A stretch of 64,000 nucleotides of DNA from an uncultured Gammaproteobacteria bacterium (GCA_947258495.1 CAMYIN010000172.1:61-64060), one strand, 5' to 3'; numbered from the stretch's first letter, positions 21,595 to 61,137 are shown. The notes: generated by a model from the letters alone, not told the origin. Numbers and translations: made by a program.

Positions 21595-21596
21595 CT

Positions 21597-22256
21597 ATGT
21601 CATTGAAACAAACCGTCACCACGCCGCTGCTGAAAGAGAACCCGCTCACCCGTAATGTATTGGGGGTCTGCGCCGCGCTCGCGATTACCAACTCGCTGAC
21701 CTCATCGTTGATCATGAGCGTGGCCATGACCACGGTGCTCGTTATCTCGAACGCAACCGTCAGCCTCATCCGTCATCATCTTCCCAGCAGTGTGCGGCTC
21801 ATCGTGCAGATCACCATCATCGCCTCGGCGGTCACAGTGATCGATCAGTTTCTCACCGCCTATCTGCCCGCCGCTGCCAGCACGCTGAGCGTGTACATCA
21901 GCCTGATCGTGACGAATTGCATCGTGCTGGGGCGCGCGGAGACCTGCGCCATGAACACCGGCGTCGGTCGCAGCGTCCTCGATGCGCTCGGCAACGGTCT
22001 GGGTTACAGCGCCATACTGATCATCGTCTCCACCATTCGAGAGCTGTTCGGCAACGGATCGCTGATGGGCGTAAAGATCCTGGAGCTGGCGCGCGACGGC
22101 GGGTGGTTCCAACCCAACGAGATGCTGATGCTGGCGCCCAGCGCATTTTTTATTATCGGATTCATCGTGTGGGGCATACGAAGCTGGAAACCGGAACAAA
22201 GGGAGCAGCCCGAGTTCAAGCCGCTCGTCGCGCCGCGGGAGGTGGAAGGACAATGA
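21597..22256 (+). CDS. nqrD: Na+-NQR subunit D
   Basis: 219 aa polytopic protein. LKENP...LGVCAALA N-terminus is typical of NqrD/RnfE. Confidence 0.92.
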
Positions 22257-22861
22257 ACGGCTTCATCGAGATCTTTTTCCGCTCGGTTTTCATCGAAAAT
22301 CTCGCGCTGGCTTACTTCCTCGGCATGTGCACGTTCCTCGCGGTATCGAAACAGATCAAGACCACGCTGGGTCTGGGTGTCGCGGTGATCGTAGTCGAGG
22401 GCATAAGCGTTCCACTCAACAATGTGATTTACAACCTGTTGCTCAGGCAGGGTGCGCTGGATTGGATGGGCCTGGGTCATCTCGATTTCAGTTTTCTCGG
22501 GCTGCTCAGCCAGATCGCAGTGATCGCGGCCATGATCCAGATCCTTGAAATGGTATTAAACAAGTTCGTGCCCGCGCTTTACAACACCCTGGGTATTTAC
22601 CTGCCGCTGCTCACCGTTAATTGCGCCATTCTGGGGGCGTCGCTGTTCATGGTGCAGCGCGACTACACCTTTGTCGAAAGCGTGGCTTACGGGCTGGGCG
22701 TAGGCGTCGGCTGGGCGCTCGCTATCGTCGCGCTCGCCGGCCTGCGCGAGAAAATGCGCTACAGCGATATCCCGGAAGGCCTGCAGGGTCTGGGGATTAC
22801 GTTCATCACCACCGGTCTGATTTCGCTGGCGTTCATCGGCCTCGCGGGCATTCAGCTCTAG
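22253..22861 (+). CDS. nqrE: Na+-NQR subunit E
   Basis: Internal ATG of ORF 21917..22861, overlapping the nqrD stop (ATGA). [33 protein letters not shown]. Confidence 0.92.
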
Positions 22862-22886
22862 GGGTGGCGTCGAGCGGATCTAGTCC

Positions 22887-24107
22887 ATGCTGGAAATCGT
22901 ACTCAGCGTAGCGCTGTTCACCGGAATCCTGCTGCTGCTGACGGTCCTCATCCTACAGGTCCGGGCGCGGCTGGTGCCGCAGGGCGACGTCCACATCGTC
23001 GCTAACGATGAGCGTGTACTCGTCGTCAAGACGGGCGAACGGCTGCTGGGTACGCTGGCGGAGGCGGGGATCTTCGTGCCCTCCGCCTGCGGCGGCGGAG
23101 GCACCTGCGGTCAGTGCAAGGTGAAAATATTGGAGGGCGGCGGGTCGTTGCTGCCTACGGAAGCGTCCTTGATCTCCAAGCGGGAGGCCGCGGAGGGCGA
23201 GCGTCTGGCGTGCCAGGTAATGGTGACCCAGAACATGCGCATCCACATCCCCGAGGACGTGTTCGGCGTGAAGAAATGGCAGTGCAATGTCCGCTCCAAC
23301 GACAACGTCGCGACCTTCATCAAGGAACTGGTGCTGCAACTCCCCGAGGGGGAGAAGCTCGAGTTCAAAGCCGGCGGCTACATCCAGATCGAGTGCCCTC
23401 CACACCGGTTGAGTTACGCGAGCTTCGACATCAAGCAGGAATACCGCGCGGAGTGGGAAAAGTACGGTCTGCTGAAACTGCGTTCCGAAGTAAAAGAATC
23501 GACAGTACGCGCCTACTCCATGGCCAATTATCCTGAGGAAAACAACATCGTCATGCTCAACGTGCGCATCGCCACGCCGCCGCCCGGCGCCCCCAAAGCG
23601 CCGCCGGGCATCATGTCGTCCTACATATTCAATCTGAAACCTGGAGATACGGTAACCGTCTCCGGACCCTATGGTGAGTTCTTTGCCAAAGACACCGGCG
23701 CAGAGATGGTGTTCATCGGCGGCGGAGCGGGCATGGCGCCGATGCGCTCGCACATATTCGATCAGTTGAAGCGCTTGAAGAGCAAGCGAAAAATAACGTT
23801 CTGGTACGGCGCTCGGAGTTTACGGGAAGCCTTTTACGTGGACGACTTCAACGAACTCGCCGAGACCCACCCCAATTTCAGCTGGCATCTCGCTCTCTCC
23901 GACCCCCAGCCGGAGGACAACTGGCAGGGGTTGACCGGATTCATCCACGAGGTATTGTACAAAGAGTACCTCGAGCAGCACCCGGCCCCTGAGGATTGTG
24001 AATACTACCTGTGCGGCCCCCCGATGATGAACGCCGCGGTGCTGAAACTGCTGGACGATCTCGGGGTGGAGGAAGAAAACATCTTGCTCGACGATTTCGG
24101 GAACTGA
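22887..24107 (+). CDS. nqrF: Na+-NQR subunit F (2Fe-2S ferredoxin / FAD / NADH domain)
   Basis: 406 aa. N-terminal [12 protein letters not shown] cluster motif, [12 protein letters not shown] motif. Confidence 0.95.
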
Positions 24108-24770: not shown

Positions 24771-25916
24771 ATGTCGCCGGATACGCCGTGGAGGCGGTGG
24801 GCGTCGACGATTTCGGAGGCTAGCGGCGTGTTCGATCGGTCCCTGGTCGCAGCCGCACGGCACCGTATTGTCGGCGTCGTCGGCGCCGCACTTACGGTGG
24901 GAGCATTGTCGGCCTGCGGCGGCGACCAGGGCGCCAAAATGCTGCAGGTCTCCGGGTCCACCATGGGCACCACGTACCGCGTCAAGATCGTAGACAAACC
25001 CGCCGCCATGGGGGCGGATACGCTGGAATCCGCGGTCGCCGACATCCTGGAGCAGGTGAACGGCCGCATGTCCACCTACCGATCCGATTCCGAACTCAGC
25101 CGCTTGAACCACAATCCGAGCACCGACTGGATTGACGTTTCCAAGCAACTGCTCGACGTCGTCGAGGCCGGGGCACGGGTGAGCAGGTTGAGCGCGGGCG
25201 CGTTCGACGTCACCGTGGGGCCGCTGGTAGCTCTCTGGGGGTTCGGATCGCAGCAGGAAACCCACGACCCGCCCGCCCACCGCGACATCGCCAAGGTCCT
25301 GTCGAGGATCGGGTACCGCAAGATTTCCCTCCGCCGTACTCCGCCGGGCATCCGCAAGGCGCGTAAAGACGTATACGTCGATCTGTCGGCCATCGCCAAA
25401 GGCTACGCGGTCGATCGCATCGCCGCTCATCTCGAGGCCCAGGGCGCGGACAACTACCTCGTCGAGATCGGGGGCGATCTCAGAGTCAAAGGTCGCAACC
25501 GTGAAGGCAGGCCCTGGCTGATCGCGATCGAAAAACCCACGGACTCCGGCCGCGTCATACAGCGCGCGATTCGCACTACCGGTCATGCGATAGCAACCTC
25601 CGGCGATTACCGTAACTTCTTCGAAAAAGACGGAAAACGCTATTCCCACACCATCGATCCCGCTTCCGGTATGCCGGTGAGCCACCGCCTTGCGTCGGTT
25701 ACCGTGCTGAGTCCCGAGGCGATGTCCGCGGACGCCCTGGCAACCGCGTTGATGGTTCTGGGGCCGGAGGACGGCTACAGCCTGGCCCAGAGACTCGGAA
25801 TTACGGCGCATTTCATTACCCGCGACGAACAGGGGTTCTCCGAGAAAAGCACTTCCGAATTCGCACGGCTGTTTGCACTTGACGTGGCGACCGCAGATGG
25901 CGATCTTCGTAATTAG
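24771..25916 (+). CDS. apbE: FAD:protein FMN transferase ApbE (lipoprotein)
   Basis: 381 aa. Lipobox LSAC; MGTTYRVKI, DLSAIAKGYAVD and TSGDYRNFFEKDGKRYSHTIDP motifs. The exact start is uncertain. Confidence 0.9.
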   Translation: MSPDTPWRRWASTISEASGVFDRSLVAAARHRIVGVVGAALTVGALSACGGDQGAKMLQVSGSTMGTTYRVKIVDKPAAMGADTLESAVADILEQVNGRMSTYRSDSELSRLNHNPSTDWIDVSKQLLDVVEAGARVSRLSAGAFDVTVGPLVALWGFGSQQETHDPPAHRDIAKVLSRIGYRKISLRRTPPGIRKARKDVYVDLSAIAKGYAVDRIAAHLEAQGADNYLVEIGGDLRVKGRNREGRPWLIAIEKPTDSGRVIQRAIRTTGHAIATSGDYRNFFEKDGKRYSHTIDPASGMPVSHRLASVTVLSPEAMSADALATALMVLGPEDGYSLAQRLGITAHFITRDEQGFSEKSTSEFARLFALDVATADGDLRN

Positions 25917-27153: not shown

Positions 27154-28543
27154 GTCGAAGCGGCCCGAGATGATTTTCTATCTGCCGGTCGGAAAGCCGC
27201 ACCAGCGTCTCGTCCGGCAGCTCGGCAAGCAACCCCCAGCCGATGCGGAACGTCTCTTCGAGGGAGCGCCGCTGATCGTCCTGGCGCACGAACTCGCTGT
27301 CCATTTTGTCGCCGAACCGGAGCACCTGCCGGTCCACGGGAGTAAGGCCCTCTTCGCCGACGACGCTGGACAGCAGTCGCAGGTGCTGGGCATGGGCGTA
27401 GGACGAATACAGCTGTTGCGCGAACGCGTGGTGGTCGGCGTGGGTCATCCCCTCGCCGATACCTTGATTCATCAGCCGAGACAGACAGGGCAACAGTTTT
27501 ATGGGCGGAAATATTCCCCTTCGATCCAGCTCGCGATCGAGGACGATCTGTCCCTCGGTGATGTAACCCGACAGGTCCGGCACCGGATGGGCGATATCGT
27601 CGTTGGGCATGCTCAAGATCGGCATCTGGGTGATCGATCCGGGACGACCGAGAATGCGTCCGGCGCGCTCGTAGATGCTCGCCAGGTCCGAGTACATGTA
27701 TCCCGGGTAGCCCTTGCGGCTGGGGACCTCTCCATGGCTCGAAGATACCTCGCGCAGGGCTTCGCAATAGTTCGTCATGTCCGTGAGGATGACAAGGACG
27801 TGCCGGCCCTCTTCGTAGGCCATGTATTCCGCCGCGGTGAGCGCAATCCGGGGGGTCAGCAGGCGTTCCGGGGTCGGGTCGCTGGCAAGATTCAAAAACA
27901 GGGCAATGCGCTGCATGGCCCCGTACTCGTCCATTTCACGACGGAAATCTTCGGCGCTGTCGAAGGTCACGCCGATGGCCGCGAACACCACAGCGAACTC
28001 TTCCGCGGCGTCGCCGCGCAGACGCGCGAAGCGTGCGATATCGGCGGCCAGACGATCGTGACGCAGCCCGCTGCCGGAAAAGATCGGCAGTTTTTGTCCG
28101 CGCACCAGCGCGTTCATGGCGTCGATGGCGGATATCCCGGTCTCGATGAACTCCCGGGGAACGTCACGACGTACGGGATTTATGGCGAGACCGTCTATGC
28201 GTAAACGCCGCCTGGCGACGATCCTCGGCCCCCCGTCCATAGGAACGCCGACGCCGTTGTAGATCCGGCCCAGCATCGATGGGCCGACGTCCAGCAGTAT
28301 GGGTTCTTCCAGGAACCGCACGCGCGTTTCTCCCAGCGACAGATCGTGGGTGCCCTGGAACACCTCCACCACCACGCCGTGCGCAGAAATCGCGACCACC
28401 CGACCCATGCGCGCTTCGCCCGCCTGCGTCACCACCTCGACACGGTCGTACAATCCGACGGCGCGGGAGTTGCGCAGGAAAATCAGCGGTCCCTGGATGC
28501 TGGTCAAACCCGTATGCAAGAGATGTCGCTCGGGATCGATCAT
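27143..28543 (-). CDS. ntpB: V/A-type ATPase subunit B
   Basis: 466 aa. ...SMPNDDIAHPVPDLSGYITEGQIVLDRELDRRGIFPPI is typical of the non-catalytic B subunit. Confidence 0.93.
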   Translation of the reverse strand: MIDPERHLLHTGLTSIQGPLIFLRNSRAVGLYDRVEVVTQAGEARMGRVVAISAHGVVVEVFQGTHDLSLGETRVRFLEEPILLDVGPSMLGRIYNGVGVPMDGGPRIVARRRLRIDGLAINPVRRDVPREFIETGISAIDAMNALVRGQKLPIFSGSGLRHDRLAADIARFARLRGDAAEEFAVVFAAIGVTFDSAEDFRREMDEYGAMQRIALFLNLASDPTPERLLTPRIALTAAEYMAYEEGRHVLVILTDMTNYCEALREVSSSHGEVPSRKGYPGYMYSDLASIYERAGRILGRPGSITQMPILSMPNDDIAHPVPDLSGYITEGQIVLDRELDRRGIFPPIKLLPCLSRLMNQGIGEGMTHADHHAFAQQLYSSYAHAQHLRLLSSVVGEEGLTPVDRQVLRFGDKMDSEFVRQDDQRRSLEETFRIGWGLLAELPDETLVRLSDRQIENHLGPLRHGA

Positions 28544-30333
28544 GCCCGCACCTCGCGTGTCACCCCGGACGCGCTCGCCGATCCGGGGACCAGCGCGTCG
28601 AAGGCGTCCTCCAGCTCGTGCCGCAAGGTCTCAAAGTCGTCGACGGCGTCATTGGAGATTTCTTCACCCATGCGTTGCAATCTACGCACTACGGGCAGTG
28701 CGAGCAGCGATTCGGGTTCCAGGCCCTGGCCCACGAGCGTCTGCGCACGTTGCACGAAAAAATCGACAAGCTCCAGCATTGCCGCTTGTTTTTGCGGCGA
28801 ACAATACCTGTCCGTATCGGAAAACGCGGATTGCCGCAATAACCCTTCGACCGCGATGTCGGCACAGATCAGCGTCGTGCGTTGCCCAGCCTGCAGTGCG
28901 TCACGACCGACGATTTTGGCCATCTTTTCCAGCCTCGCCTGTTCCTGGAGCAGCGTCAGCAGGCGTTCGCGGCGCTCCGCCCAAAGGACACCGCCGTACT
29001 GCTGCCACCAGCGCGCGGTGCTCGGGAGGTACTCGGAATAGCTCTGCAGCGGGTGGATCGCCGGATAGAAGCGGGCCTGGGCCCGGTCCCGGTCCAAGGC
29101 GTGGAAGCTCTTGACATAGCGGCGCGCGTGACCGGTGACGGGCTCGGAGAAATCGCCCCCCGGAGGCGAGACCGTGCCGACGACGGTGAGAGAGGATTGT
29201 TCGCCGCCGTGGGTCGTCACCCTACCGGCGCGCTCGAAGAACTCCGCCAGACGGCTCGGCAGGTACGCCGGATACCCCTCTTCCGCCGGCAGTTCCTCCA
29301 GCCGCCCGGAGATCTCGCGCAGGGCCTCGGCCCAGCGGGAGATGGAGTCCGCGAACAACGCCACGTGCAGTCCCTGGTCGCGGAAGTATTCGCCGATCGT
29401 GATTCCGGTGTAGATACAGGCCTCACGCGCGGCGACCGGCATGTTGGAGGTGTTGGCGATCAGCACCATGCGTTCGATCAGGGGGCGCCCGCTACGCGGG
29501 TCTTCCAGTTGCGGGAACTCCTCCAGCACACCCGCCATTTCGTTGCCGCGCTCCCCGCAACCGATGTACACGATCACGTCGGCGTCGCACCATTTCGCCA
29601 GGGTCTGCTGGAGCACGGTCTTGCCGGTACCGAAACCGCCCGGCATCGCGCTCGCCCCGCCTTTGGCGATCGGAAACAGCGTGTCGATGATGCGTTGCCC
29701 GGTCATGAGCGGGCGTTCCGGCTGCAGCCGTTTACGAAACGGCCTGGGCACCCGTATCGGCCAGCGGCAGTACATGCCGATGTCGGCGATCCCCTGCTGG
29801 GTGCGCAGCTTCGCCAGCGGCGCGTCAAGCCGATACACGCCCTCGGGGGCCAGCCACTCCAGCGTCCCGGCGAGGTTCGCCGGCACCGTTATGCGATGAT
29901 AACGGTCCGGACCCTCGCTGACGGTACCGAGGCTCTCGCCACCCCTTACTCCATCCCCCGGCGACAGGGCTGGTCGAAACGGCCATTCGCGATCGCGGTC
30001 CAGTCTGGGAACGTCGGCGCTGGCGGCGATGAAATCGCCGCACCCCTTGGCGACCGCCGGTAACGGTCTTTGGATGCCGTCAAAAATATTGCCGAGCATC
30101 CCGGGACCGAGTTCCACGGTGAGCGGTGCTCCGCTGCCTTCGACGATCGACCCGGGACGCAGCCCGGTGGTGTCCTCGAAAACCTGAACTGTGATGCAGT
30201 CGGTATCGAGACGGATGACCTCCGCCGTGAGCCGATCCGGGCCAACGTAGACGGCCTCCTTGATTCTGAAATCGCCTTCCGGTCGGGCCTTGATCACCGG
30301 ACCGCTCAGCCAGAACACCTCGGCGCGGCTCAT
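28540..30333 (-). CDS. ntpA: V/A-type ATPase catalytic subunit A
   Basis: ORF trimmed to the ATG at 30333 (MSRAEVFWLSGPVIKARPEG...), overlapping the upstream stop (ATGA). P-loop GGFGTGKT. 597 aa, no intein-sized insertion. Confidence 0.93.
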   Translation of the reverse strand: MSRAEVFWLSGPVIKARPEGDFRIKEAVYVGPDRLTAEVIRLDTDCITVQVFEDTTGLRPGSIVEGSGAPLTVELGPGMLGNIFDGIQRPLPAVAKGCGDFIAASADVPRLDRDREWPFRPALSPGDGVRGGESLGTVSEGPDRYHRITVPANLAGTLEWLAPEGVYRLDAPLAKLRTQQGIADIGMYCRWPIRVPRPFRKRLQPERPLMTGQRIIDTLFPIAKGGASAMPGGFGTGKTVLQQTLAKWCDADVIVYIGCGERGNEMAGVLEEFPQLEDPRSGRPLIERMVLIANTSNMPVAAREACIYTGITIGEYFRDQGLHVALFADSISRWAEALREISGRLEELPAEEGYPAYLPSRLAEFFERAGRVTTHGGEQSSLTVVGTVSPPGGDFSEPVTGHARRYVKSFHALDRDRAQARFYPAIHPLQSYSEYLPSTARWWQQYGGVLWAERRERLLTLLQEQARLEKMAKIVGRDALQAGQRTTLICADIAVEGLLRQSAFSDTDRYCSPQKQAAMLELVDFFVQRAQTLVGQGLEPESLLALPVVRRLQRMGEEISNDAVDDFETLRHELEDAFDALVPGSASASGVTREVRA

Positions 30334-30974
30334 CGGCGCTGCTCGCGGCGGTGGGCGTAAATCAACTGCGCCACGCGCTCCAATGCGCGTTCCCGGATGA
30401 GCGGGTATTGCGACCGCAGGCTGCCGTCGAGCAGATGATCCGGCCAGCGAACAACGACGCCCGGCTCGTCGCCGCTGTCTACCAGCACCTCGCATTGTGC
30501 GGGGTAATCCTGCATCACGGCCTTGACCTTGTCGCAGACGTCCGCAGATCCGCCTTTACCGAGCCTGATCTGCAGGGGCGCGGCTACCGATGCGCGTCGC
30601 GCGGCGGTGATCCAATATCGGCACCACCTCCATTGTCCATCGCCATCGTTCCACGCCTCGATCATGCGCAGCCAGATCGCTTCCGCCAGCCGCTGCTGGG
30701 TTTCCGTCATCAAGCGCCAACGCCGCCGGCGCAACCGCGCCTTGACCACCGCCGAATAACGCTCGTTCATCTGCTGCTGACTCTGGCGCGACTGCGCTGA
30801 GGCCTTGCGGTGAATGTTGCGGCATTCGGCAAATGCCCCGGCGCGTATTTCGGCGATACGGGCGGCTTTGCCGGCCTCGATCTCCTGTAACGTGCGGTCG
30901 CGGTCGCGGGCGATCTTCTCCAGAAAGCTCGCGACCTGCTGCGGATCGAATTCGAGACCTGTGCGGTTTTGCAT
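30330..30974 (-). CDS. ntpE: V/A-type ATPase subunit E-like stalk protein
   Basis: 214 aa. N-terminal charged coiled-coil, globular C-terminus, and a position between F and A. Assigned by position and composition only. Confidence 0.55.
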   Translation of the reverse strand: MQNRTGLEFDPQQVASFLEKIARDRDRTLQEIEAGKAARIAEIRAGAFAECRNIHRKASAQSRQSQQQMNERYSAVVKARLRRRRWRLMTETQQRLAEAIWLRMIEAWNDGDGQWRWCRYWITAARRASVAAPLQIRLGKGGSADVCDKVKAVMQDYPAQCEVLVDSGDEPGVVVRWPDHLLDGSLRSQYPLIRERALERVAQLIYAHRREQRR

Positions 30975-30995
30975 GTGCGTTCGAACTCCGCTCCG

Positions 30996-31301
30996 TCAGC
31001 GTACTCCCAACACACGACGCGCGGCGTCAACGCCGTCGGCGTGCAGGCCGTCGTCGGTGTCAATGCTGGGGACAACGAGTATCGGCGGTATCGGATGCCG
31101 CACCAGCAGTTTTTCCAAAAGGTGGGGCACAACCTGCGCATGGGCCTGATTGAGAAGGATCAGGTCGGAGCGGTCGCGTGCGTCCTCGATCGCATTCCAC
31201 ACCGCATCCGCGTCGACGGCCAGCGGTTGAGCCGTCGCTCCCACCAGACGGAGCCCCTCCGAGGTCAACGCGTCGCCGATGTAACAGATCCGCAAAGGCA
31301 C
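30996..31301 (-). CDS. ntpF: V/A-type ATPase subunit F
   Basis: 101 aa. ICYIGDALTSEGLRLVGA...DLILLNQAHAQ is the typical F-subunit pattern. Confidence 0.7.
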   Translation of the reverse strand: MPLRICYIGDALTSEGLRLVGATAQPLAVDADAVWNAIEDARDRSDLILLNQAHAQVVPHLLEKLLVRHPIPPILVVPSIDTDDGLHADGVDAARRVLGVR

Positions 31302-31305
31302 GGTC

Positions 31306-31662
31306 TCAACCCAAGCGATTCAAGATCATGACCGCGATGATCAAGCCGTATATGGCGATACCTTCGGCGAGACCGACCAGCACCAAGGTCCTTCCGAACA
31401 GCTCGGGTTTTTCGGCAATCGCCCCCACCGCGGCCGCGCCCACTCCCGCCACCGCAATGCCGGCCGCAATCGCCGAAAGTCCCGCGGCCGAAGCGGCGGC
31501 CGCGAACCCCCATCGCACTACCGACGGATCCACCGCGGCGTCGAAGGCTTCCGCGGCAAGGACCGACGAGGGGAGCAGGAAGACTGTAACGTACAGCGCG
31601 GTCGCGATGAGCGCGATCGTCGCCGTGATCCCGAGCATGAGCTTTGTTATCGGTTGCTGCAT
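31306..31662 (-). CDS. ntpK: V/A-type ATPase proteolipid subunit K (c)
   Basis: 118 aa. Gly/Ala-rich hairpin AGIAVAGVGAAAVGAIAEKPELFGRTLVLVGLAEGIAIYGLIIAV with the carboxylate Glu in the last helix. Confidence 0.85.
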   Translation of the reverse strand: MQQPITKLMLGITATIALIATALYVTVFLLPSSVLAAEAFDAAVDPSVVRWGFAAAASAAGLSAIAAGIAVAGVGAAAVGAIAEKPELFGRTLVLVGLAEGIAIYGLIIAVMILNRLG

Positions 31663-31699
31663 GAGGCTACTCCGTGGTTGTTGGTCATCGCTCTAACGG

Positions 31700-33595
31700 T
31701 TACGTCGACCGGTGTTGCGGCAGTCGCAGGGGATGGAACAACCTGCCTCCGCCCGTGAAAAAGCGCCTGAAAAACTCAAACATGACCAGACGTGTCGTCT
31801 GTATGGAAACGACCAAGCCCTCCAGCACGATGATAATGCCGTTGCCGAGGACGAATATCAGGGTCCGGAGGACAACATTGTCCGGCATCGCACTGAGCGC
31901 CATCACCGCGGCGCTCAAGCCGGAATGGGCCAGGGCGAACGCGCCCAAGCGCGCGAAAGACACGGTATTGATCGCGAGCTGAAAGACGGATTCCAGCAAC
32001 CCCATCACGCGCGCTGCGGTGTTCTTGAAAATGCCGCCGCTGCCGCCTGTCCGATACCCATCAACGACCGACGCGGCCAGAAACCAGAGTAAAGACAGCG
32101 CCGCCAGGACCAATGCCGCATTCCAGGAGACGAGGCCTACGGCCACGCTTGCGTACATCGCGATCACGGGCGCTTCGTACCCCCACCAGCGGTCGAGCGC
32201 GCGCTGCCAGCGCGCCTGAACGCCGCCGAGAAGCATGCCCGAGAGCAGCATCAGCCAGCCGAATCCGATCGGAATCAGGAGTATCAACAAGGGATGTTCG
32301 AGGGGCGTCAGCCAGATGGGCGGCAATCGGTGCTCGATGCAGAAAACCGAGCCGAACAGAAAACCAAAAAACATGGAACTCAATCCCCCGACCATCAGCA
32401 ACTCCATGATCGGCAGGCGCTTGCGCGCCAGCCATCCGACCAGCATCAGGACGGCCCCGTGCCCCACATCGCCGAACATGTAACCGAACATCAACGGCGT
32501 CATGACGGCGAGCACCGGGCTGGGATCGATCTCGTCGGCGCCGGGAACGCCGAACCCGGTCACCAGGCGTTCGAACCGCCGTATCCACGGCGGATTATCG
32601 AACTCCACCGGAGGAACACCGTGTTCACGGGCCGGTTCTCGATTGATCAGGAACGGGATCCCGCCGCGCTGCAGCGCCGCCACCAGATCGCGGTAACGCG
32701 ACGCCGGCGCCCATCCCCCCAACCACACGAATCGCGCCCCCACCAAGGAATCCTCCAGGACCTCGTGCAGCCATAGATGTTGCCGCAACAACCAGAGTTC
32801 GCCGGCGATGCACGAGCGGCGATTCAGCGCCTCCAGCTCCCCACGCAGACGGGCACAGATGCGGCGTTGCTCCGCCACGAGTCCGCGCGCATGCGACAGC
32901 GCCGCGCTTCGGGATCGGGGGATGTCCGCGGGCACGCGGACGAAGCGCATGCCCCGACTGTGGAAGCGCCTTTCGAGCTCGGGCAGCTTGTCGCGATCGG
33001 TCACACCCACGACCAGCACCCGCGCGTCCGCAGATTCGGCGTCATCGGCGACCTTCGTCAGCGGATAGGCCCGGCCGATGGCATCAACGCCCGCCGCGGT
33101 CAGCAGATCGACGTCGTCGCTGCGGCCCAGCGCCAGGAAAGGCGGGAACCTGCGTGCGCTTTTGCCGGACAACAACTGCACATCGAGGCCCTCCTCGGGC
33201 AGGTTCCGGAGACAGGTTTCGAGCACAACGAGTTCTTCCAGACGGGATACCGCCTGCTGCAGATCCTCGGAGATCGGCAGCGCAGCGCTGAGCCAGTGTT
33301 CGAAGCTGCGCTCGAGCTCTGCCACCACCACCGCGGTCGGCATAGACCGACGCCGGGCCTCGACCATCTCCACATCCGCTGCGGGTAGATGGCGGCGTAC
33401 GCCGTCGAGGCTGCGCTGCAGATGCAAAAGGCGATTGCGCATGCGGTCGTCCCGCTCGATTTCGAACGGCGGCTGCGAACGATCGTAGCGCTGTAATTCC
33501 AGCACCCCCAGTTGTCCCAGCACCTGCAGCGCCGCGGCTATCGAATCGCGATCCACGAGGAGGTCGACCCATACCATCTCCACGGGGCGAAACAT
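31700..33595 (-). CDS. ntpI: V/A-type ATPase subunit I (a)
   Basis: 631 aa. Soluble N-terminal half, polytopic C-terminal half ending ...SFARLGAFALAHSGLS...LEGLVVSIQTTRLVMFEFF, which carries the conserved Arg region. Confidence 0.88.
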   Translation of the reverse strand: MFRPVEMVWVDLLVDRDSIAAALQVLGQLGVLELQRYDRSQPPFEIERDDRMRNRLLHLQRSLDGVRRHLPAADVEMVEARRRSMPTAVVVAELERSFEHWLSAALPISEDLQQAVSRLEELVVLETCLRNLPEEGLDVQLLSGKSARRFPPFLALGRSDDVDLLTAAGVDAIGRAYPLTKVADDAESADARVLVVGVTDRDKLPELERRFHSRGMRFVRVPADIPRSRSAALSHARGLVAEQRRICARLRGELEALNRRSCIAGELWLLRQHLWLHEVLEDSLVGARFVWLGGWAPASRYRDLVAALQRGGIPFLINREPAREHGVPPVEFDNPPWIRRFERLVTGFGVPGADEIDPSPVLAVMTPLMFGYMFGDVGHGAVLMLVGWLARKRLPIMELLMVGGLSSMFFGFLFGSVFCIEHRLPPIWLTPLEHPLLILLIPIGFGWLMLLSGMLLGGVQARWQRALDRWWGYEAPVIAMYASVAVGLVSWNAALVLAALSLLWFLAASVVDGYRTGGSGGIFKNTAARVMGLLESVFQLAINTVSFARLGAFALAHSGLSAAVMALSAMPDNVVLRTLIFVLGNGIIIVLEGLVVSIQTTRLVMFEFFRRFFTGGGRLFHPLRLPQHRST

Positions 33596-34387
33596 CTACG
33601 TCCCTCCCCCAAGGACCTGGGTCACGGACCAGCGGCGCGACACGGCGATCAGCAGTGCGCGGCATTTTTCGTAATGCAGAATCTCCAGCAGGGCGTACAC
33701 GAGCACGAAGCCCGCGTGGAAAGGTTCGCCGCCGAGAAGCGCACGCAATTCGTCGGCAAGTCTGTCCCTCAGGCGCCATTGCACGCCGAGGTCGAGCGAC
33801 TCGCCCGCGGCGGCACGATCGCGCAGGCGCGCCAACGTCTTCAGGTGCTTGCCGACGCAGCGAAGCAAGCGTCGAACTACGTAGCCTTCACGTCCCCCCA
33901 GGGCGGGGCAATGACGTTCGAAATCCTTCAACCAGACCACCAACGTCGCGGCTTCCGGCGGTGCGCCGGGATCTGGCACAAGCCTTCGCCGGGTCTCGGC
34001 GCGATCCGCGGCGGCCGTCCGCCGTTCGGTGTCGACACGAAGGTCGCGCACGTCAGCGTCTTCGAAGCGCCGCGCGGCCGCCAGTTCGACCCCCCGACGC
34101 AGCCATTGGTCCAGATCGCTCCAGCGTTCGGGCAGCAGGCGAACCAATCGCCCGACCCATCGCCGCAGACCGTCGAACAACGCCTCCTCTATGGCGGCAA
34201 CGTCCGGTGAGCGCGGCAGCGTTTCGACCCAGTGTCCGAGGCCGCTCGCGCGCATGCGGGCGATCAACACGTCGACGTCGGCGGCGTCCGCGAGATACTG
34301 CCAGGTGCGAAGTTCCGGCATGGCGCCGAGGCGCGCGCGCACCCGGGCCTGCGCCTCCGCAAATTCGAAATTTCGCTTCAAACCCAC
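33596..34387 (-). CDS. ntpC: V/A-type ATPase subunit C (d, AC39 family), short form
   Basis: 263 aa, GTG start. The pattern FAEAQARVRARLGAMPELRTWQYLADAADVDVLIARMRASG matches the AC39-type N-terminus. First gene of the operon. Confidence 0.55.
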   Translation of the reverse strand: MGLKRNFEFAEAQARVRARLGAMPELRTWQYLADAADVDVLIARMRASGLGHWVETLPRSPDVAAIEEALFDGLRRWVGRLVRLLPERWSDLDQWLRRGVELAAARRFEDADVRDLRVDTERRTAAADRAETRRRLVPDPGAPPEAATLVVWLKDFERHCPALGGREGYVVRRLLRCVGKHLKTLARLRDRAAAGESLDLGVQWRLRDRLADELRALLGGEPFHAGFVLVYALLEILHYEKCRALLIAVSRRWSVTQVLGGGT

Positions 34388-55482: not shown

Positions 55483-56265
55483 ATGACCCGAACTGTACCG
55501 CGCTTCCTCCAGCGCTATAAAGGTGTCGAGGGATATTATTTCATCAACCGCAACGCGGACCTCGGCTATATCCGCGCGGCGGACGCAAAGCCGGTGAAAG
55601 AGAACTTCCCGCAACTGCACGACCGAAAGTTCATGCGTGCGCATCCGGATTTCGTCTATCAGCTGGAGACGTTCCTGCGCGATCTCCAGGAGATGTCCTA
55701 CATCTATCTCAACACCGCCGAGACCGGGATGGAACTGGGATACGTTCTCCCCACCAACGGCTCCGGTTACGAATGGAGTTCGTCGACGCTGGTCACGCAC
55801 CAGCACGTCGTCGATGCCATGCGCAAAGACGATGCGGAGGATGCATCGCCGACAACCCCCGCCCTGAACAGCGCGAGCGTCCGTCACAGCGTGTACCGCG
55901 GCCTCAACGGCCTTCACGGTCACCGGGGCCGGGAAGGCCAGTACCGATATTTCCCCGTGCTCTTTTTCCAGGGCGGCCCCCACGCGGATGGCACCGCGAC
56001 GGCGAAGACCTTAGCGCAGGTCTCCGGATTTCACGACACCAGCCTGCGGGTTTTAAACCTGCTTTGGCGGCGGCAGAAAGACGCAGGGCATATGGCAGGA
56101 TTGGACGCCATGTTCGACCTGCTTCGCGGCAACGTCAAGGCACGCAGCGCCGTTGGTGCCGGACAACCACGCCGGCCACGGCCCAGCTCCATGGACCGGG
56201 TCCTTGCCGCGCGACCGGCCGCGGCGCCGCGGGGTCCGCGCCCCCCCTCCACGCAGATCCAGTAG
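55483..56265 (+). CDS. hypothetical protein
   Basis: 260-aa ORF. The first ~200 aa look protein-like (mixed composition, aromatic-rich); the C-terminal ~50 aa are Pro/Arg/Ala-rich. No family recognised. Confidence 0.4.
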   Translation: MTRTVPRFLQRYKGVEGYYFINRNADLGYIRAADAKPVKENFPQLHDRKFMRAHPDFVYQLETFLRDLQEMSYIYLNTAETGMELGYVLPTNGSGYEWSSSTLVTHQHVVDAMRKDDAEDASPTTPALNSASVRHSVYRGLNGLHGHRGREGQYRYFPVLFFQGGPHADGTATAKTLAQVSGFHDTSLRVLNLLWRRQKDAGHMAGLDAMFDLLRGNVKARSAVGAGQPRRPRPSSMDRVLAARPAAAPRGPRPPSTQIQ

Positions 56266-56882
56266 ACCCAAGACTCCTATACACCGTCCGCGGCCGGCGG
56301 TTTCGACTGTCACTCTGCGGGCGCTTCCGCGCGCCGCCACAGCGGCGTTGCCGCGCCGCTCGTCAAGCACGATGCGCGCGCCGATTGGCGGCGGATTTGC
56401 CCATATCGCTTGATCTCGATCACGGAACTCCGTATAAGCATGCACGGTAGAATCCGATTAGGCCTTTACACCCTCGGAACGATTAACGGAAAATCCGGGG
56501 GACACACGTCCAGGAGCGCGAGTCCGCGATAAAGGAGTTGCCGCTTCGTGCGTTGGACGGCTGATTTGCGTCGCAAGCGAGTCGAAAGGAATTTTTTTGC
56601 ATCGATGACTCGAGCGCACCGTGAGGTGAAGCGCGGCGCCCCGGGGCACGACAATACAAATCGATATAAAGCTCTTGGCATCAGAGTGTTTAAGGAATTG
56701 GTGAACGTACAACTACAAATGGCGCCTTCTTACCCGGCGAAACCCGCGCAAAATCCCCAATCTCCCATCCCTTCCTCGGCGAACCAACGGCCTCTCGTCC
56801 ATGGCGGGGCATCGCCCAGGAAGCCCGCCGGTTTCAGTTTCTGCTGCGCCGGCGGTACGCGCCCAACCTGGCAGTAGACCGG

Positions 56883-58877
56883 ATGCGGGCGATCCACGTT
56901 TCAGTCTGGTTGTTATCGATCTTCCTCCTGTTCACCGGCGCTTCCGGAGGCTGGTCGGCAGACGCGCGCGCCCAGGTCACACTCAGCAAAGACAATGCTC
57001 GCGACGGCAACGAGGCGAAACCCAAGAACGAGCTGTGTCTGGGTTGTCACGGCTACGAAGGCTTCGGCGTACCCACCGGAGAGACCGGCGAACGCGCGAT
57101 GCGCAAGCTGTACGTATCGCCGGAACTGTTCAAACAGAGCGTGCACGCCAAGCGTGCGTGTGTCGACTGCCACTGGGACATACTCCAGATCCCCCATGAA
57201 AGAGGTGTGCAGCGCGAACGGGTCAACTGCATAGACTGCCATCTCAGCACCCTCGAAGCTCAGAACAAGAACGGCACCAAGGAATTCAAGCGGGTGGACA
57301 TCGTGGTGCAGAACATCGCGAGCTACACGAGCTCCGTACACGCCGAGCCGCGCGACGACGACCTCAACAGACCCAACGCCTACTGCTCGGACTGCCACAA
57401 TGCGCACACCTTTGCGCCACTGGGGACCAAACCGCGTCTGGATTTTCGTCTTTCCATCCCCGACGTGTGCGGCAAGTGTCACGCGGACATCAAAGAGGCC
57501 TATTTGACGTCGGTGCACGGTCAGGAAGTAAAACAGGAGGGAAATCCGAACGCCGCGGTGTGTGTCGATTGCCACACCACCCACGACATCGAATCCCCCG
57601 AAGCGGACAACGTGAAACTGTCCATCACCGCCAATTGCGGCAACTGTCACGGAAACCAGTTGAAGACCTACATGGGCACTTATCACGGACAGGTGACGAC
57701 ACTCGGTTACGCCTATACCGCGAAATGCTTCGACTGCCACGGACACCACGACATCGCCAGGGTCGCCGACGACACTTCGCGCGTGCACCAGAACAACCGG
57801 CTCGAGACCTGTCAGAAGTGTCACGCGGACGCCACCAAAGGCTTCATCACCTTTCATCCCCACGGCAACAGCCATGACTTCGACCGCTATCCGTACATGT
57901 GGATCGCATCGAAGTTCATGATCGCGCTGCTGGCCGGTGTATTTGCCTTCTTCTGGACGCATTCCGCGCTCTGGTTCTACCGCGAATACCGGGATCGCAA
58001 GGAGGGCAAGAACGCACCCCACGTCGATACCGAGAAACTGGGACACGAAGGCAAACGCTACATCAGGCGCTGGCCGCTGGGGTGGCGCGTAGCGCATCTG
58101 CTCCTGGCGCTGGCGGTCATGACGCTGGTGTTGACCGGCACCTCGGCGTTGTTCGCGGAGAGCGCCTGGGCGCAGACGGTGATGCAGACACTCGGCGGCC
58201 CGAGGGTGGCGGCGATACTGCACCGCATCGCGGCGCTGACGTTCATCATCCTGTTCTTCGGGCACCTGCTTTTCATGGCCTACCACATCATCAAGAGCGG
58301 CGACAAGTGGAAGTGGTTCGGGCCGAATTCACTGATTCCCAATTTCGACGATCTACGGCAGGCGTCGGCCATGTTCCGGTGGTTCTTCGGCAACGGCCCG
58401 CGACCGGTGTTCGACCGCTGGGCCTACTGGGAGAAATTCGACTATTGGGCTCCGTTCTGGGGCATGGCGATCATCGGCGTCAGCGGCGCCATGTTGTGGT
58501 TCCCGGCGGCGACCGCCTCGGTCCTGCCCGGCTGGGTCTTCAACGTCGCCACCATCATCCACGGCGAAGAGGCCTTCCTGGCCGCGGTGTTCTTGTTCTC
58601 GGTGCACTTCTTCAACTGCCATTTCAGACCGGACAAGCTGCCCCAGGACATCGTCATGTTCACCGGAGCGATGCCGCTGGAGGAATACAAGCACGAACAC
58701 ACGCTGGAATACAAACGGCTGCTCGAGAACGGGGAGTTGGACAAGTACCTCGTCGACGCACCGTCCAAACCCATGACCCTGGGCTCTCAGCTGCTGGGCG
58801 CCACGCTTATCCTGATCGGTCTGACCCTGTTGGTGCTGGTGCTGCTCGGTTTCTGGGAAAACGTTATCACCGCATGA
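56883..58877 (+). CDS. CbcL-like fusion: nine-heme periplasmic c-type cytochrome domain plus C-terminal dihaem cytochrome b (FdnI/HydC-like) membrane domain
   Basis: 664 aa with a signal peptide and nine CXXCH motifs (CLGCH, CVDCH, CIDCH, CSDCH, CGKCH, CVDCH, CGNCH, CFDCH, CQKCH). These are followed by about 5 TM helices with conserved His (RVAHLLLAL, ILHRIAAL...FFGHLLF, IIHGEEAF...SVHFFNCHF). Confidence 0.75.
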   Translation: MRAIHVSVWLLSIFLLFTGASGGWSADARAQVTLSKDNARDGNEAKPKNELCLGCHGYEGFGVPTGETGERAMRKLYVSPELFKQSVHAKRACVDCHWDILQIPHERGVQRERVNCIDCHLSTLEAQNKNGTKEFKRVDIVVQNIASYTSSVHAEPRDDDLNRPNAYCSDCHNAHTFAPLGTKPRLDFRLSIPDVCGKCHADIKEAYLTSVHGQEVKQEGNPNAAVCVDCHTTHDIESPEADNVKLSITANCGNCHGNQLKTYMGTYHGQVTTLGYAYTAKCFDCHGHHDIARVADDTSRVHQNNRLETCQKCHADATKGFITFHPHGNSHDFDRYPYMWIASKFMIALLAGVFAFFWTHSALWFYREYRDRKEGKNAPHVDTEKLGHEGKRYIRRWPLGWRVAHLLLALAVMTLVLTGTSALFAESAWAQTVMQTLGGPRVAAILHRIAALTFIILFFGHLLFMAYHIIKSGDKWKWFGPNSLIPNFDDLRQASAMFRWFFGNGPRPVFDRWAYWEKFDYWAPFWGMAIIGVSGAMLWFPAATASVLPGWVFNVATIIHGEEAFLAAVFLFSVHFFNCHFRPDKLPQDIVMFTGAMPLEEYKHEHTLEYKRLLENGELDKYLVDAPSKPMTLGSQLLGATLILIGLTLLVLVLLGFWENVITA

Positions 58878-59089
58878 GCCGCGCATTATCGAGGCGAGTA
58901 TTGATCCGCATCATTGAATTTCGACGTAACAAACGTATTCAATTCCGGTCGGACGCTATACGGGATCGTGAACCAACCCATACCTGGTTGCACTCTCGTG
59001 CGCCTGCGATACAGTTGCATAGCGGCCGCCGCCGCGGGTGGAAGGCGGCACCGCGTGATGTCAAGAGAATAGTTCCTTGAGGTAATTTT

Positions 59090-60205
59090 ATGAGAAAGCT
59101 CGCGTTACTGTTTCCGTTGATTCCGATCATGTTGACCGCCTGCGGGGAAGAGCAGCAAGTCCAGCCGCCCAAAGCGGATATTGCGGCCGGTAAAGCCACG
59201 GCACAAGCGGAATGCGCCGGCTGCCACGGTTTGGATGGGAAAGGCGTGGCGCCGGGCATTCCGAATCTGGCGGCGCAGAACGAGGACTACCTGCACGAGT
59301 CGCTGATGGCGTACAAGGAGGGGAAAAGGACCCACGCCGCACTGCGCGATCTCACCAGCCATATGAGCGACCAAGGGCTTCGCGACGTCGCCGCGTTTTA
59401 CGCAAGTCTGCCGCCGGTGCAGACGGACCAGACGACAAAGGCGATTACGCTTTCGCCCTACGAGAAAGGCAAGGCCTTGTCGGCGTCCTGCGCAAGTTGC
59501 CACGGCGAAGACGGCAACACCACACGACCCGGCATGCCCAGCCTGGCGGGACAGCAACCGCTTTATTTCGTGTCGGCGCTGCAGGCCTATCTGCACGGCG
59601 CGCGACATATCGCCACCATGGAGGAATCCCTGCGCGGCCTGAACCGGATCGACATGGAAAATCTGGCGGTCTACTACGCTTCCCAGACCCCGGTGCGCCG
59701 CGGAGCCCCCACCGTGGGCGACCCCGCCAAGGGGGAGCCGCTCACCGCCCGCTGCGGCGGCTGCCACGGAGCGCACGGCGTGAGCCACGACGCGTCGACG
59801 CCGACTCTGGCGGGCCAGGACGCGGAGTATCTCGTCAGCGCCATAAAAGCCTACCGGGACCAGACCCGGCAGCACGAGATCATGCTCTCCGGCAATACGG
59901 ACGAAGAAATCGCGGACATCGCCGCGTTTTACGCGGTGCAGGAGTCGAAGGCGGCCGAACGCGGGGCGACGACGGTGAAGGAACTGTCGGATAAATGCGA
60001 TCGCTGCCACGCTGTCGGCGTCGAGAACCCGGCGATGGCGATCCCCAAGATACAGGGACAGGACCGGGACTATCTTATCAAGGCCATGCGCGCGTACCGC
60101 GACGGCAAACGCGGAAGCTCTCTCATGCATAATATGAGCTTGCCCTACAGCGAGGCCGTCATCGAGAGCGTCGCCTCGTTGTACGCGAACCAATCCGCGA
60201 GATAG
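59090..60205 (+). CDS. tetrahaem class-I c-type cytochrome lipoprotein (two tandem cytochrome c4-like units)
   Basis: 371 aa. Lipobox LTAC and four CXXCH motifs (CAGCH, CASCH, CGGCH, CDRCH), each followed by P.LAGQ...Y as in c4-type domains. Confidence 0.8.
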   Translation: MRKLALLFPLIPIMLTACGEEQQVQPPKADIAAGKATAQAECAGCHGLDGKGVAPGIPNLAAQNEDYLHESLMAYKEGKRTHAALRDLTSHMSDQGLRDVAAFYASLPPVQTDQTTKAITLSPYEKGKALSASCASCHGEDGNTTRPGMPSLAGQQPLYFVSALQAYLHGARHIATMEESLRGLNRIDMENLAVYYASQTPVRRGAPTVGDPAKGEPLTARCGGCHGAHGVSHDASTPTLAGQDAEYLVSAIKAYRDQTRQHEIMLSGNTDEEIADIAAFYAVQESKAAERGATTVKELSDKCDRCHAVGVENPAMAIPKIQGQDRDYLIKAMRAYRDGKRGSSLMHNMSLPYSEAVIESVASLYANQSAR

Positions 60206-60477
60206 CACTCGCCGCTCCATGCAGGATCGATCCCGATTCAGCGGCGCGAGTCTCAGGGTGCCGACGGGCGGAGTACGATGTTGACATGCGCCGACGAATC
60301 GGCGCCGGCGGACCACGGCTGCGCGTCGGGTCGCCCGTGATACACCATGAGAGGGAACGATCCGGCAAGCAGGACGGGCTACGACCTGCGTGGAGAAGGG
60401 ACGCCGACCAGCGTTGCAGAAATGCGGCCGCCTGCAACGGTATGGGGCCGTAAACGGATGGTCGCGGAGTACAGAGC

Positions 60478-61137
60478 ATGATGAAGTTTCCAGCTTGGTT
60501 GATCGCCCTGGCGGCGATTTCTGTTTTTGGCAGCGTCGCCGTCGGTGCCCCCGGCCAGCAGGCCACCCAGGCGCCCGTCGCTGCAGAGCCACCGCCGACG
60601 CCGGAGATCATCTCCGAGTGCACCAATTGCCATGGCGAGACCGGCGTGAGCGATGTGCGTTACGTGCCCCATCTCGCCGGACAACGCCGCGGTTACCTGC
60701 GCAAGCAGTTGAACGCGTTTCGGGACAACACGCGAACCAATCCGGGCATGCACGCCGTGGTGATGCCGCTGGACGAGGCCCTGATCGACGACATCGCGGC
60801 CTATTTTTGGGCCCAGGGGCAACAGTCGAAAGCCGCGAAACCGGAGGGCGGCGTATCTCCAGACAGCCTCGACCCCAAACTCGCAAAGCTGGTGGAGAAA
60901 TGCGACCGCTGTCACGAACCCAACGAATTCAACCAGAAGGCGATCCAGGACTACCCCGTTCTGGCGGGACAAAGGCAGGAGTACCTCGCTCACGAAATGC
61001 GGGATTTCCAGAACAAGCACAAGCGCGACAACGAGATGATGTACGCGATGACGGACGTGCTCATCGGCGAAGAAATCGACAAGCTCGCGTCGTTCTATGA
61101 GAATCGCCGTTCGCCGCAACGCCTGGGCGCGCGCTGA
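60478..61137 (+). CDS. dihaem cytochrome c4-like protein
   Basis: 219 aa with a signal peptide and two class-I domains (CTNCHGETG...PHLAGQ; CDRCHEPN...PVLAGQ). Confidence 0.8.
   Translation: MMKFPAWLIALAAISVFGSVAVGAPGQQATQAPVAAEPPPTPEIISECTNCHGETGVSDVRYVPHLAGQRRGYLRKQLNAFRDNTRTNPGMHAVVMPLDEALIDDIAAYFWAQGQQSKAAKPEGGVSPDSLDPKLAKLVEKCDRCHEPNEFNQKAIQDYPVLAGQRQEYLAHEMRDFQNKHKRDNEMMYAMTDVLIGEEIDKLASFYENRRSPQRLGAR

Follow-up and report, generated by a model that had tools for sequence, protein, structure and literature searches.

In a 64,000-nucleotide stretch of DNA from an uncultured Gammaproteobacteria bacterium (GCA_947258495.1, CAMYIN010000172.1:61-64060; hereafter the window), a gene for a nine-haem c-type cytochrome fused to a predicted dihaem b-type membrane domain (gene 1) is followed by a gene for a tetrahaem c4-type lipoprotein (gene 2), and this pairing is conserved across three proteobacterial classes. 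A third gene, which encodes a soluble dihaem c4-type cytochrome (gene 3), comes next on the same strand. Judged from its sequence, gene 1 is a member of the known CbcL/MtrH/MtoC family, whose members share this architecture in 15 phyla, occur in iron reducers as well as iron oxidisers, and have conserved b-haem histidines (PMC6295460). The fusion architecture and the association of a bc-type cytochrome with a class-I carrier have both been published, and therefore neither is new. What appears to be new here is the conserved pairing of gene 1 with a tetrahaem c4 lipoprotein, together with the lineage-specific dihaem c4; the family and its general role were already known. No description of a CbcL/MtoC-c4 pairing was found in the searchable papers.

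Gene 1 has 2687 homologues at E <= 1e-5 (word-indexed search), and its family forms about 720 clusters at 50% identity (E <= 1e-30, exhaustive search). Conservation of the pair was assessed in two sets of loci. The first, anchored on gene 2, was drawn from metagenome contigs and comprises 80 loci, in which the 46 orthologues preceded by 400 bp or more of DNA were counted. A gene-1 homologue ends no more than 600 bp upstream, on the same strand, in 39 of these 46, and one lies within 6 kb in 43. The second set, anchored on gene 1, was drawn from species-representative genomes, one genome per species; among its 73 loci with enough downstream DNA, gene 2 lies directly downstream on the same strand in 29 and anywhere in the locus in 36. 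The order and strand of the pair are fixed, and its carriers are labelled as Alpha-, Beta- and Gammaproteobacteria (e.g. Xanthobacteraceae, Hyphomicrobiales, Burkholderiales, Lysobacterales and Wenzhouxiangellaceae). The distance matrices of genes 1 and 2 are also correlated (r 0.76, reached by 0/2000 permutations), a result which shared species history alone could yield. That genes 1 and 2 act as one conserved unit is supported by these observations. A rough neighbour-joining tree of the gene 1 family places the window within the c4-linked part; in the separate clade that contains the Gallionella homologue, the neighbouring genes are MtoA-like and monohaem MtoD-like, and the tetrahaem c4 is absent.

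An earlier reading of the sequence, the first-pass annotation, had raised the possibility that all three genes form a co-conserved triad. This holds for genes 1 and 2, which are adjacent in the 39 loci noted above, and fails for gene 3, which is restricted to the nearest relatives. Orthologues of gene 3 (55-64% identity) occur in L001-L003 only (such labels denote the loci of relatives), in L164 the corresponding position is taken by a gene for a c-type cytochrome of 223 aa, and there are none among the 80 gene-2-anchored metagenome loci. Gene 3 is confined to the gammaproteobacterial lineage of the window. The gene-1 homologue of L001 is 74% identical to that of the window and is followed directly by the gene 3 orthologue, with gene 2 absent; therefore gene 1 can pair with the dihaem protein alone.

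In relatives the pair is found in varied redox clusters, and therefore it behaves as a portable module. A larger cluster, conserved in many of them (L021 9952-16813, L050 3547-17286 and L014 2134-11182), also encodes a further tetrahaem c4, a paralogue of about 40% identity, and a ~260-aa monohaem membrane protein with no assigned family. Next come a six-haem cytochrome whose C-terminal half is PdsA-like and subunits of the NrfC and NrfD types. In L050 the pair is directly preceded by genes for two proteins that exceed their NCBIfam cut-offs, a decahaem of the DmsE/MtrA family (254 bits against 192) and a porin of the MtrB/PioB family (258 bits against 240), and the same decahaem type is present in L023 and L024 beside an open reading frame (ORF) of 770-780 aa. 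A multicopper oxidase and CopB are encoded directly upstream of the gene-1 homologue in L001 (7149-12772). With MtrA/MtrB, NrfCD and a second tetrahaem paralogue added in the clusters of relatives, the earlier description of the triad as self-contained is doubtful. The window holds no MtrB-like porin, NrfC/NrfD or second tetrahaem paralogue. An identification of the NrfC/NrfD neighbours as NetBCD was considered and rejected, as they have no NCBIfam match to NetB, NetC or NetD.

Haem domains and ligands of the three proteins

Three ORFs, all on the plus strand, are present at the coordinates given in Table 1, and they encode the nine-haem/b fusion, the tetrahaem lipoprotein and the dihaem c4 cytochrome of the first-pass annotation. 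Together they carry 15 c-haem sites (9+4+2) and four b-haem ligands, sufficient for two b-haems. A repeat search of the region returned haem-motif and c4-domain repeats only.

Gene 1 starts with a signal peptide (residues 1 to ~30), followed by a periplasmic c domain (~48-331) and six predicted membrane helices (about 337-365, 398-426, 439-475, 516-548, 550-580 and 629-664). A motif scan locates its nine CXXCH motifs at residues 52, 93, 116, 168, 196, 227, 252, 282 and 310. Ligand conservation was scored over 79 homologues from species-representative genomes, in which each motif is retained in 77-79. Nine histidines of the c domain outside these motifs (88, 105, 153, 175, 212, 234, 268, 289 and 327) are nearly invariant in the same homologues, and these would fit bis-His ligation for all nine c-haems.

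The membrane domain has no match among PDB sequences, therefore its homology to FdnI is shown by profile and fold. Pfam family Ni_hydr_CYTB (PF01292, prokaryotic cytochrome b561) matches residues 396-576 of gene 1 with 35.6 bits (cut-off 30.1), and the NCBIfam formate dehydrogenase gamma model TIGR01583 is matched below threshold (E 6e-7). In a profile of the C-terminal domain, made from 31 homologues and aligned with Escherichia coli FdnI, residues H405, H447 and H560 fall on FdnI H18, H57 and H155, residues that ligate haem in the 1KQF structure. H575 follows H560 by 15 residues, and the corresponding pair in FdnI is 14 apart. The sole significant Foldseek match to the AlphaFold model of gene 1 is FdnI (1kqf_C, E 8e-4, TM-score 0.66 on target), with the cytochrome b of Hyd-1 next, weakly. 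Pfam, the FdnI profile and Foldseek agree on the CbcL-type architecture that had been proposed for gene 1. Residues H405, H447, H560, H575 and H580 are present in 79/79 homologues; the dihaem-b histidine pattern first noticed in one sequence is thus retained throughout the alignment, and we consider the b-haem domain predicted from it to be real.

Judged from the predicted helix positions, H405 and H575 lie near cytoplasmic helix ends and H447 and H560 near periplasmic ends, like FdnI. We propose that H405/H575 would ligate a cytoplasmic-side b-haem and H447/H560 a periplasmic-side one, stacked across the membrane, with the sides taken from the FdnI structure. The fourth core helix carries an invariant polar motif, N578-x-H580-x-R582-P-D-K585, at its cytoplasmic end, and the invariant polar residues on the cytoplasmic side comprise D511, Y515, K518, N578, H580, R582, D584 and K585. 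The N578-K585 motif is a candidate quinone or proton site. In 1KQF the menaquinone site of FdnI is on the cytoplasmic side as well.

Gene 2 has a lipobox (L-T-A-C18) and a GAGG ribosome site 7 nt upstream. It consists of two dihaem c4 units with four CXXCH motifs, one per c4-like domain. Its top solved relative is cytochrome c4 (8uf3, E 6e-23); 6q2u also matches, and further solved relatives include flavocytochrome c subunits and the A. ferrooxidans c-552. For gene 3 the top solved relative is the c-552 of Acidithiobacillus ferrooxidans (1h1o, E 1.5e-21), with 6q2u at E 1e-18. The six c4 domains of genes 2 and 3 are mutually alignable and share the signature C-x-x-C-H ... P-x-L-A-G-Q ... Met. 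Gene 3 keeps the aligned Met in both domains, as a dihaem c4 cytochrome should.

Conservation in gene 2 was scored over 34 orthologues. The lipobox Cys is present in 33 of them, and domains 2 to 4 each keep their Met ligand (M177, M265 and M346). In domain 1 (residues 82-92, window about 59333-59365) there is no conserved Met, unlike in the other five c4 domains, and the aligned column carries Leu; among the orthologues M92 is found in 16/34, Leu in 15/34 and H82 in 30/34. Therefore the first haem may have a different sixth ligand, and such altered ligation could lower its potential. Among curated models, genes 2 and 3 both score highest against PdsA (NF049874), with 109.9 and 50.4 bits respectively; with a cut-off of 330 bits, both fall outside PdsA itself.

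Direction of electron flow and competing explanations

Our preferred reading, to which we give a little less than an even chance, is that the three proteins form a wire from the quinone pool to the periplasm and work outward in quinol oxidation. Quinol would be oxidised at a cytoplasmic-face site of the FdnI-like domain of gene 1, and electrons would cross the membrane by way of the H405/H575 b-haem and then the H447/H560 b-haem. They would then run along the nine, probably bis-His, c-haems of gene 1 to the membrane-tethered tetrahaem lipoprotein, and from there to the soluble dihaem c4, which would pass them to periplasmic or outer-membrane acceptors encoded elsewhere. The domain anatomy, the conserved ligands, the FdnI-type fold, the lipobox and signal peptides and the conserved pair are observations, from which we infer where quinone binds, in what order the three proteins hand electrons on, in which direction these flow and where they end up. 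The quinone site is placed at the cytoplasmic face because this offers the sole evident reason for a transmembrane crossing and because FdnI is so arranged. As the quinone site and the c-haems would lie on opposite faces, transfer would be electrogenic.

This has consequences for the energetics. Outward flow would be helped by the membrane potential, with protons released inside and no energy conserved, as proposed for Geobacter CbcL. Inward flow would build proton-motive force, but the potential of its donor would have to be far lower than that of the quinone. For ubiquinone at a membrane potential of roughly 150 mV, the break-even potential of the partner is estimated at around -50 mV. His/Met c4 haems are usually high-potential, typically +200 to +400 mV. 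If the c4 haems here have such potentials, outward flow alone would be feasible, and if they are tuned low, both directions would be possible. Low tuning is plausible for shuttles of an Mtr pathway, and the unusual domain 1 of gene 2 gives a hint of it. The high c4 potential on which the first-pass annotation built is an assumption, given that PdsA is the nearest model and that the conserved Met is missing from this domain. Its suggestion that electrons could flow either way also has to be narrowed, as the FdnI-type topology makes inward flow from high-potential c4 haems doubly uphill.

Support for the outward direction comes from CbcL, a quinol oxidase that reduces PpcA, and from PdsA, the nearest model of the carriers, which is a shuttle of the metal-reducing Mtr pathway. 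The MtrA- and MtrB-family genes directly upstream of the pair in L050 also speak for the preferred reading. Tethering of the first carrier is supported by the conserved lipobox Cys of gene 2. Several points weigh against outward quinol oxidation by these three proteins. MtoC, the closest named relative of gene 1, has been proposed to operate inward in iron oxidisers. In L163 (5149-15948, a Kaarinaea-type contig) the pair is flanked by two flavoprotein genes of flavocytochrome c sulfide dehydrogenase, i.e. by electron donors. With high-potential c4 haems, a quinol oxidase assisted by the membrane potential would squander energy, with no clear advantage over bc1. No acceptor or outer-membrane conduit genes are present in the window, and the intergenic gaps are large (212 and 272 nt). 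In public sequencing runs the region was matched in soil and sediment DNA metagenomes only, by at most 17% of words, and in no RNA runs. Lastly, the AlphaFold model of gene 1 is poor (mean predicted local distance difference test score, pLDDT, of 57, with about 65-80 in the membrane part); its haem domain is unusable, and therefore no haem-to-haem geometry is claimed.

The main rival reading is that the same module runs the other way, to which we give somewhat less weight than to outward flow. Low-potential donors would then feed the c4 carriers, and electrons would pass through the nine c-haems and two b-haems to quinone at the cytoplasmic face, building proton-motive force in an Fdn-N-like redox loop. 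The donor could be Fe(II), by way of an outer-membrane conduit whose genes lie elsewhere, or sulfide, by way of flavocytochrome c. The flavoprotein genes on either side of the pair in L163 are in keeping with the latter, and this context suggests a link to sulfide oxidation in that organism. MtrA/MtrB-type genes adjoin the pair in several relatives, such conduits being bidirectional, and the FdnI template itself runs inward. The top solved relative of gene 3 is an iron-oxidation cytochrome, the A. ferrooxidans c-552, and MtoC homologues have been proposed as the quinone reductases of iron oxidisers (PMC6295460; PMC8805035). However, no member of the family is known to act as a quinone reductase, and the window holds neither a donor enzyme nor a conduit. 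The energetics are also unfavourable, since on standard bioenergetics the FdnI topology would drive electrons against the membrane potential, and c4 haems at +200 to +400 mV could not reduce ubiquinone; unusually low-potential c4 haems would be needed.

It is also improbable, in our view, that genes 2 and 3 are ordinary c4 cytochromes serving a cbb3-type oxidase or similar, with gene 1 having other partners and the three forming no single unit. Solved structures of cbb3 oxidases do contain c4-type proteins (8smr and 8snh, both matched by gene 2), the gaps between the genes are wide, L001 retains a close gene-1 homologue with no adjacent gene 2, and gene 2 is missing from the vicinity of half of the gene-1 homologues. 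Against this stand the adjacency of gene 2 to gene 1 in 39/46 orthologues, and its presence within 6 kb in 43/46, in three proteobacterial classes and many contexts, as well as the fixed order and strand; no oxidase genes adjoin the pair in the loci examined.

We give very little weight to the idea that the membrane domain binds no quinone and is a pure transmembrane conduit to a cytoplasmic redox partner, or a redox sensor: a quinone site is unprovable from sequence, the H580, R582, D584 and K585 motif could equally be a docking site, and sigma-54 two-component regulators and CXXCH-containing sensor kinases adjoin some homologues, but the characterised FdnI/HydC-type b subunits are all quinone-reactive, the neighbourhoods of relatives revealed no cytoplasmic partner gene that is conserved, and genetics place CbcL at the menaquinol step (bioRxiv 10.1101/2022.08.31.506072 and two Bond-laboratory papers).

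Outside Shewanella and Geobacter, models of iron, sulfur and electrode metabolism are weak on how the quinone pool is connected to periplasmic or extracellular redox partners, and the c4-linked form described here recurs in uncultured Proteobacteria of soil, sediment and groundwater. If the pair is a working unit, it would provide a two-gene marker for a quinone-to-periplasm route in such genomes, and a defined test case for membrane potential setting the direction of flow in FdnI-type bc cytochromes. If the potentials of its c4 haems are high, the pair would bypass bc1 in an unusual way, with no energy conserved. A more general proposal, which is speculative and which we think quite unlikely as a whole, is that the pair forms a hitherto undescribed respiratory complex and acts as an electrogenic quinone:cytochrome c oxidoreductase with its direction set by membrane potential and by the redox potential of its partner. 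It would then be a further 'complex III' beside bc1 and ACIII, the alternative complex III, widespread in Alpha-, Beta- and Gammaproteobacteria of soil, sediment and groundwater, and a portable gateway for Mtr-type conduits, NrfCD modules and sulfide dehydrogenases.

The locus and its surroundings

In the window, AmpD and a conserved unknown ORF flank the triad on one side, and its other flank consists of tRNA-Thr, fur and type IV pilin genes. The same gene order is found in L002, L003 and L164, therefore this is a stable chromosomal locus in the lineage of the window. Third-position GC of the three genes is 0.78-0.81, in line with that of neighbouring genes. Horizontal insertion was rejected on these grounds, the flanks from LexA to the pilin genes being syntenic with L002, L003 and L164. 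Relic cytochrome domains were found neither in the gaps nor in the DNA upstream of gene 1, and the gap between genes 2 and 3 contains no coding relic. The weak sigma-70-like site in Table 1 is the sole candidate promoter seen for the cluster. An Rfam scan returned tRNAs only, and no Fur box was found near the cluster, though a fur gene lies downstream.

Table 1. Features of the cytochrome locus, numbered from the first nucleotide of the window.
Feature	Coordinates	Strand	Description and basis
Gene 1, CbcL/MtrH/MtoC-family bc-type cytochrome	56883..58877	+	664 aa; assigned from motifs, Pfam, profile and fold
Gene 1, nine-haem c domain	57024..57875	+	Nine CXXCH and nine extra nearly invariant histidines
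Gene 1, membrane domain	57891..58874	+	Predicted FdnI-like dihaem b core; haem sides inferred from FdnI structure
Gene 2, tetrahaem lipoprotein with four class-I (c4-type) domains	59090..60205	+	371 aa; lipobox, CXXCH, domain alignment
Gene 3, soluble periplasmic dihaem c4-type cytochrome	60478..61137	+	219 aa; Sec signal peptide, two CXXCH
Gap between genes 1 and 2	58878..59089	+	212 nt; no terminator-like or promoter-like site in scans
Gap between genes 2 and 3	60206..60477	+	272 nt; no terminator-like or promoter-like site in scans
Weak sigma-70-like site	56465..56494	+	9/12 consensus matches only; ~390 nt upstream of gene 1

A 260-aa ORF (55483-56265, plus strand) lies 618 nt upstream of gene 1. 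It has no Pfam or NCBIfam match and no evident signal peptide. It occurs at the same position in L002 and L003 with 47-49% identity, therefore it is a real gene, and it is absent in L001. Some further genes recur beside the cluster in relatives. ORFs matching Pfam family Flavodoxin_5 (possibly HemG-like) are found in L020, L021, L041, L044 and L051, and an ORF of 453-463 aa is present in L023 (6294-7685) and in L163, where it matches the Amino_oxidase family. Both appear to be protoporphyrinogen oxidase-type genes, which may link them to haem supply. L163 also has a NapC/NirT-type tetrahaem gene near the pair.

The combination of a DmsE/MtrA decahaem with an MtrB/PioB porin, by which Mto/Mtr porin-cytochrome systems are recognised, was not found in the window. 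The sole match to the decahaem is about 39 kb from the triad, a 209-aa hexahaem protein with a signal peptide (17593-18222, plus strand). It is NrfB-like and matches the first 154 positions of the DmsE/MtrA model at 99.6 bits, which is below cut-off. Its gene ends 31 nt before nqrA, at the start of a run of ORFs (18253-24107) consistent with nqrA-F (NqrA alone checked), and ApbE follows the run at 24771-25916. A multihaem gene directly before a Na+-NQR operon is unusual. A few kb downstream of nqr are V/A-type ATPase genes (28540-34387, minus strand; A subunit at 28540-30495, subunit I homologue at 31700-33595), and this proximity hints at a sodium-based energy economy. The window also encodes a histidine-specific methyltransferase dependent on S-adenosylmethionine (PF10017; 40025-41143, minus strand), an enzyme of the EgtD type, which would suggest ergothioneine-type synthesis.

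Comparison with known systems

Among the closest known systems is CbcL of G. sulfurreducens (GSU0274), an inner-membrane enzyme of the quinone pool that feeds periplasmic cytochromes, and gene 1 falls in its family. Both have nine CXXCH motifs, for which gene 1 offers nine further histidines as candidate second ligands, and both join a haem domain to a six-helix HydC/FdnI-like dihaem b domain, with no iron-sulfur, flavin or molybdenum subunits. CbcL is a menaquinol oxidase required for low-potential acceptors; its nine haems are bis-His ligated with an apparent potential of -194 mV, and it reduced PpcA in vitro (PMC9129911). Its b domain has been argued to release protons into the cytoplasm, so that less energy is conserved (bioRxiv 10.1101/2022.08.31.506072). 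CbcL and the MtoC/MtrH branch, to which gene 1 belongs, share about 35% identity as reported in PMC6295460. The partner of CbcL is the trihaem c7-type PpcA, whereas the neighbours of gene 1 are c4-type, and Geobacter uses menaquinone whereas the gammaproteobacterial host of the window probably uses ubiquinone.

MtoC and MtrH of Gallionella, Dechloromonas and Rhodoferax belong to the same family, and also combine an inner-membrane bc cytochrome with a class-I periplasmic carrier; MtoC had already been paired with the periplasmic carrier MtoD (PMC8805035). Aligned along its whole length, gene 1 shares 49-50% identity with a homologue from Gallionella (L074), which lies beside genes for an MtoA-like decahaem and a monohaem class-I cytochrome. 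The carriers in the window are a tetrahaem c4 lipoprotein and a dihaem c4, in place of a soluble monohaem protein, and unlike Mto loci the window has no MtoA or MtoB; the role of Mto is itself inferred from gene context only. The genes of the CbcL/MtrH/MtoC family often stand beside other cytochrome genes or mtrAB/mtoAB, and have been tied to extracellular electron transfer (PMC6295460).

The membrane domain of gene 1 resembles E. coli FdnI (1KQF chain C) in its four-helix dihaem b core and its pattern of four histidines. In gene 1 this core has an extra helix on either side and the nine-haem domain is covalently fused to it, whereas FdnI stands as a subunit of its own and takes its electrons from an iron-sulfur protein.

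For the carriers, a comparable role is found in the NetBCD-PdsA-MtrCAB route, in which a dihaem class-I shuttle works between an inner-membrane quinol dehydrogenase and the Mtr conduit, although that dehydrogenase is NrfBCD-like and not CbcL-like. Genes 2 and 3 have tandem class-I domains like those of cytochrome c4 and the A. ferrooxidans Cyc1 c-552 (8UF3, 1ETP, 1H1O); gene 2 differs from cytochrome c4 in being doubled to four domains, lipid-anchored and without the conserved Met in its first domain. In iron oxidisers, Slit_1321-1324 of Sideroxydans (a cytochrome b, a monohaem class-I and a dihaem protein) has been proposed as a periplasmic electron-transport unit (PMC10734462). By its description it is similar to the present locus in that a membrane b cytochrome is encoded together with class-I c cytochromes, but its cytochrome b has no fused multihaem domain and its gene set is different.

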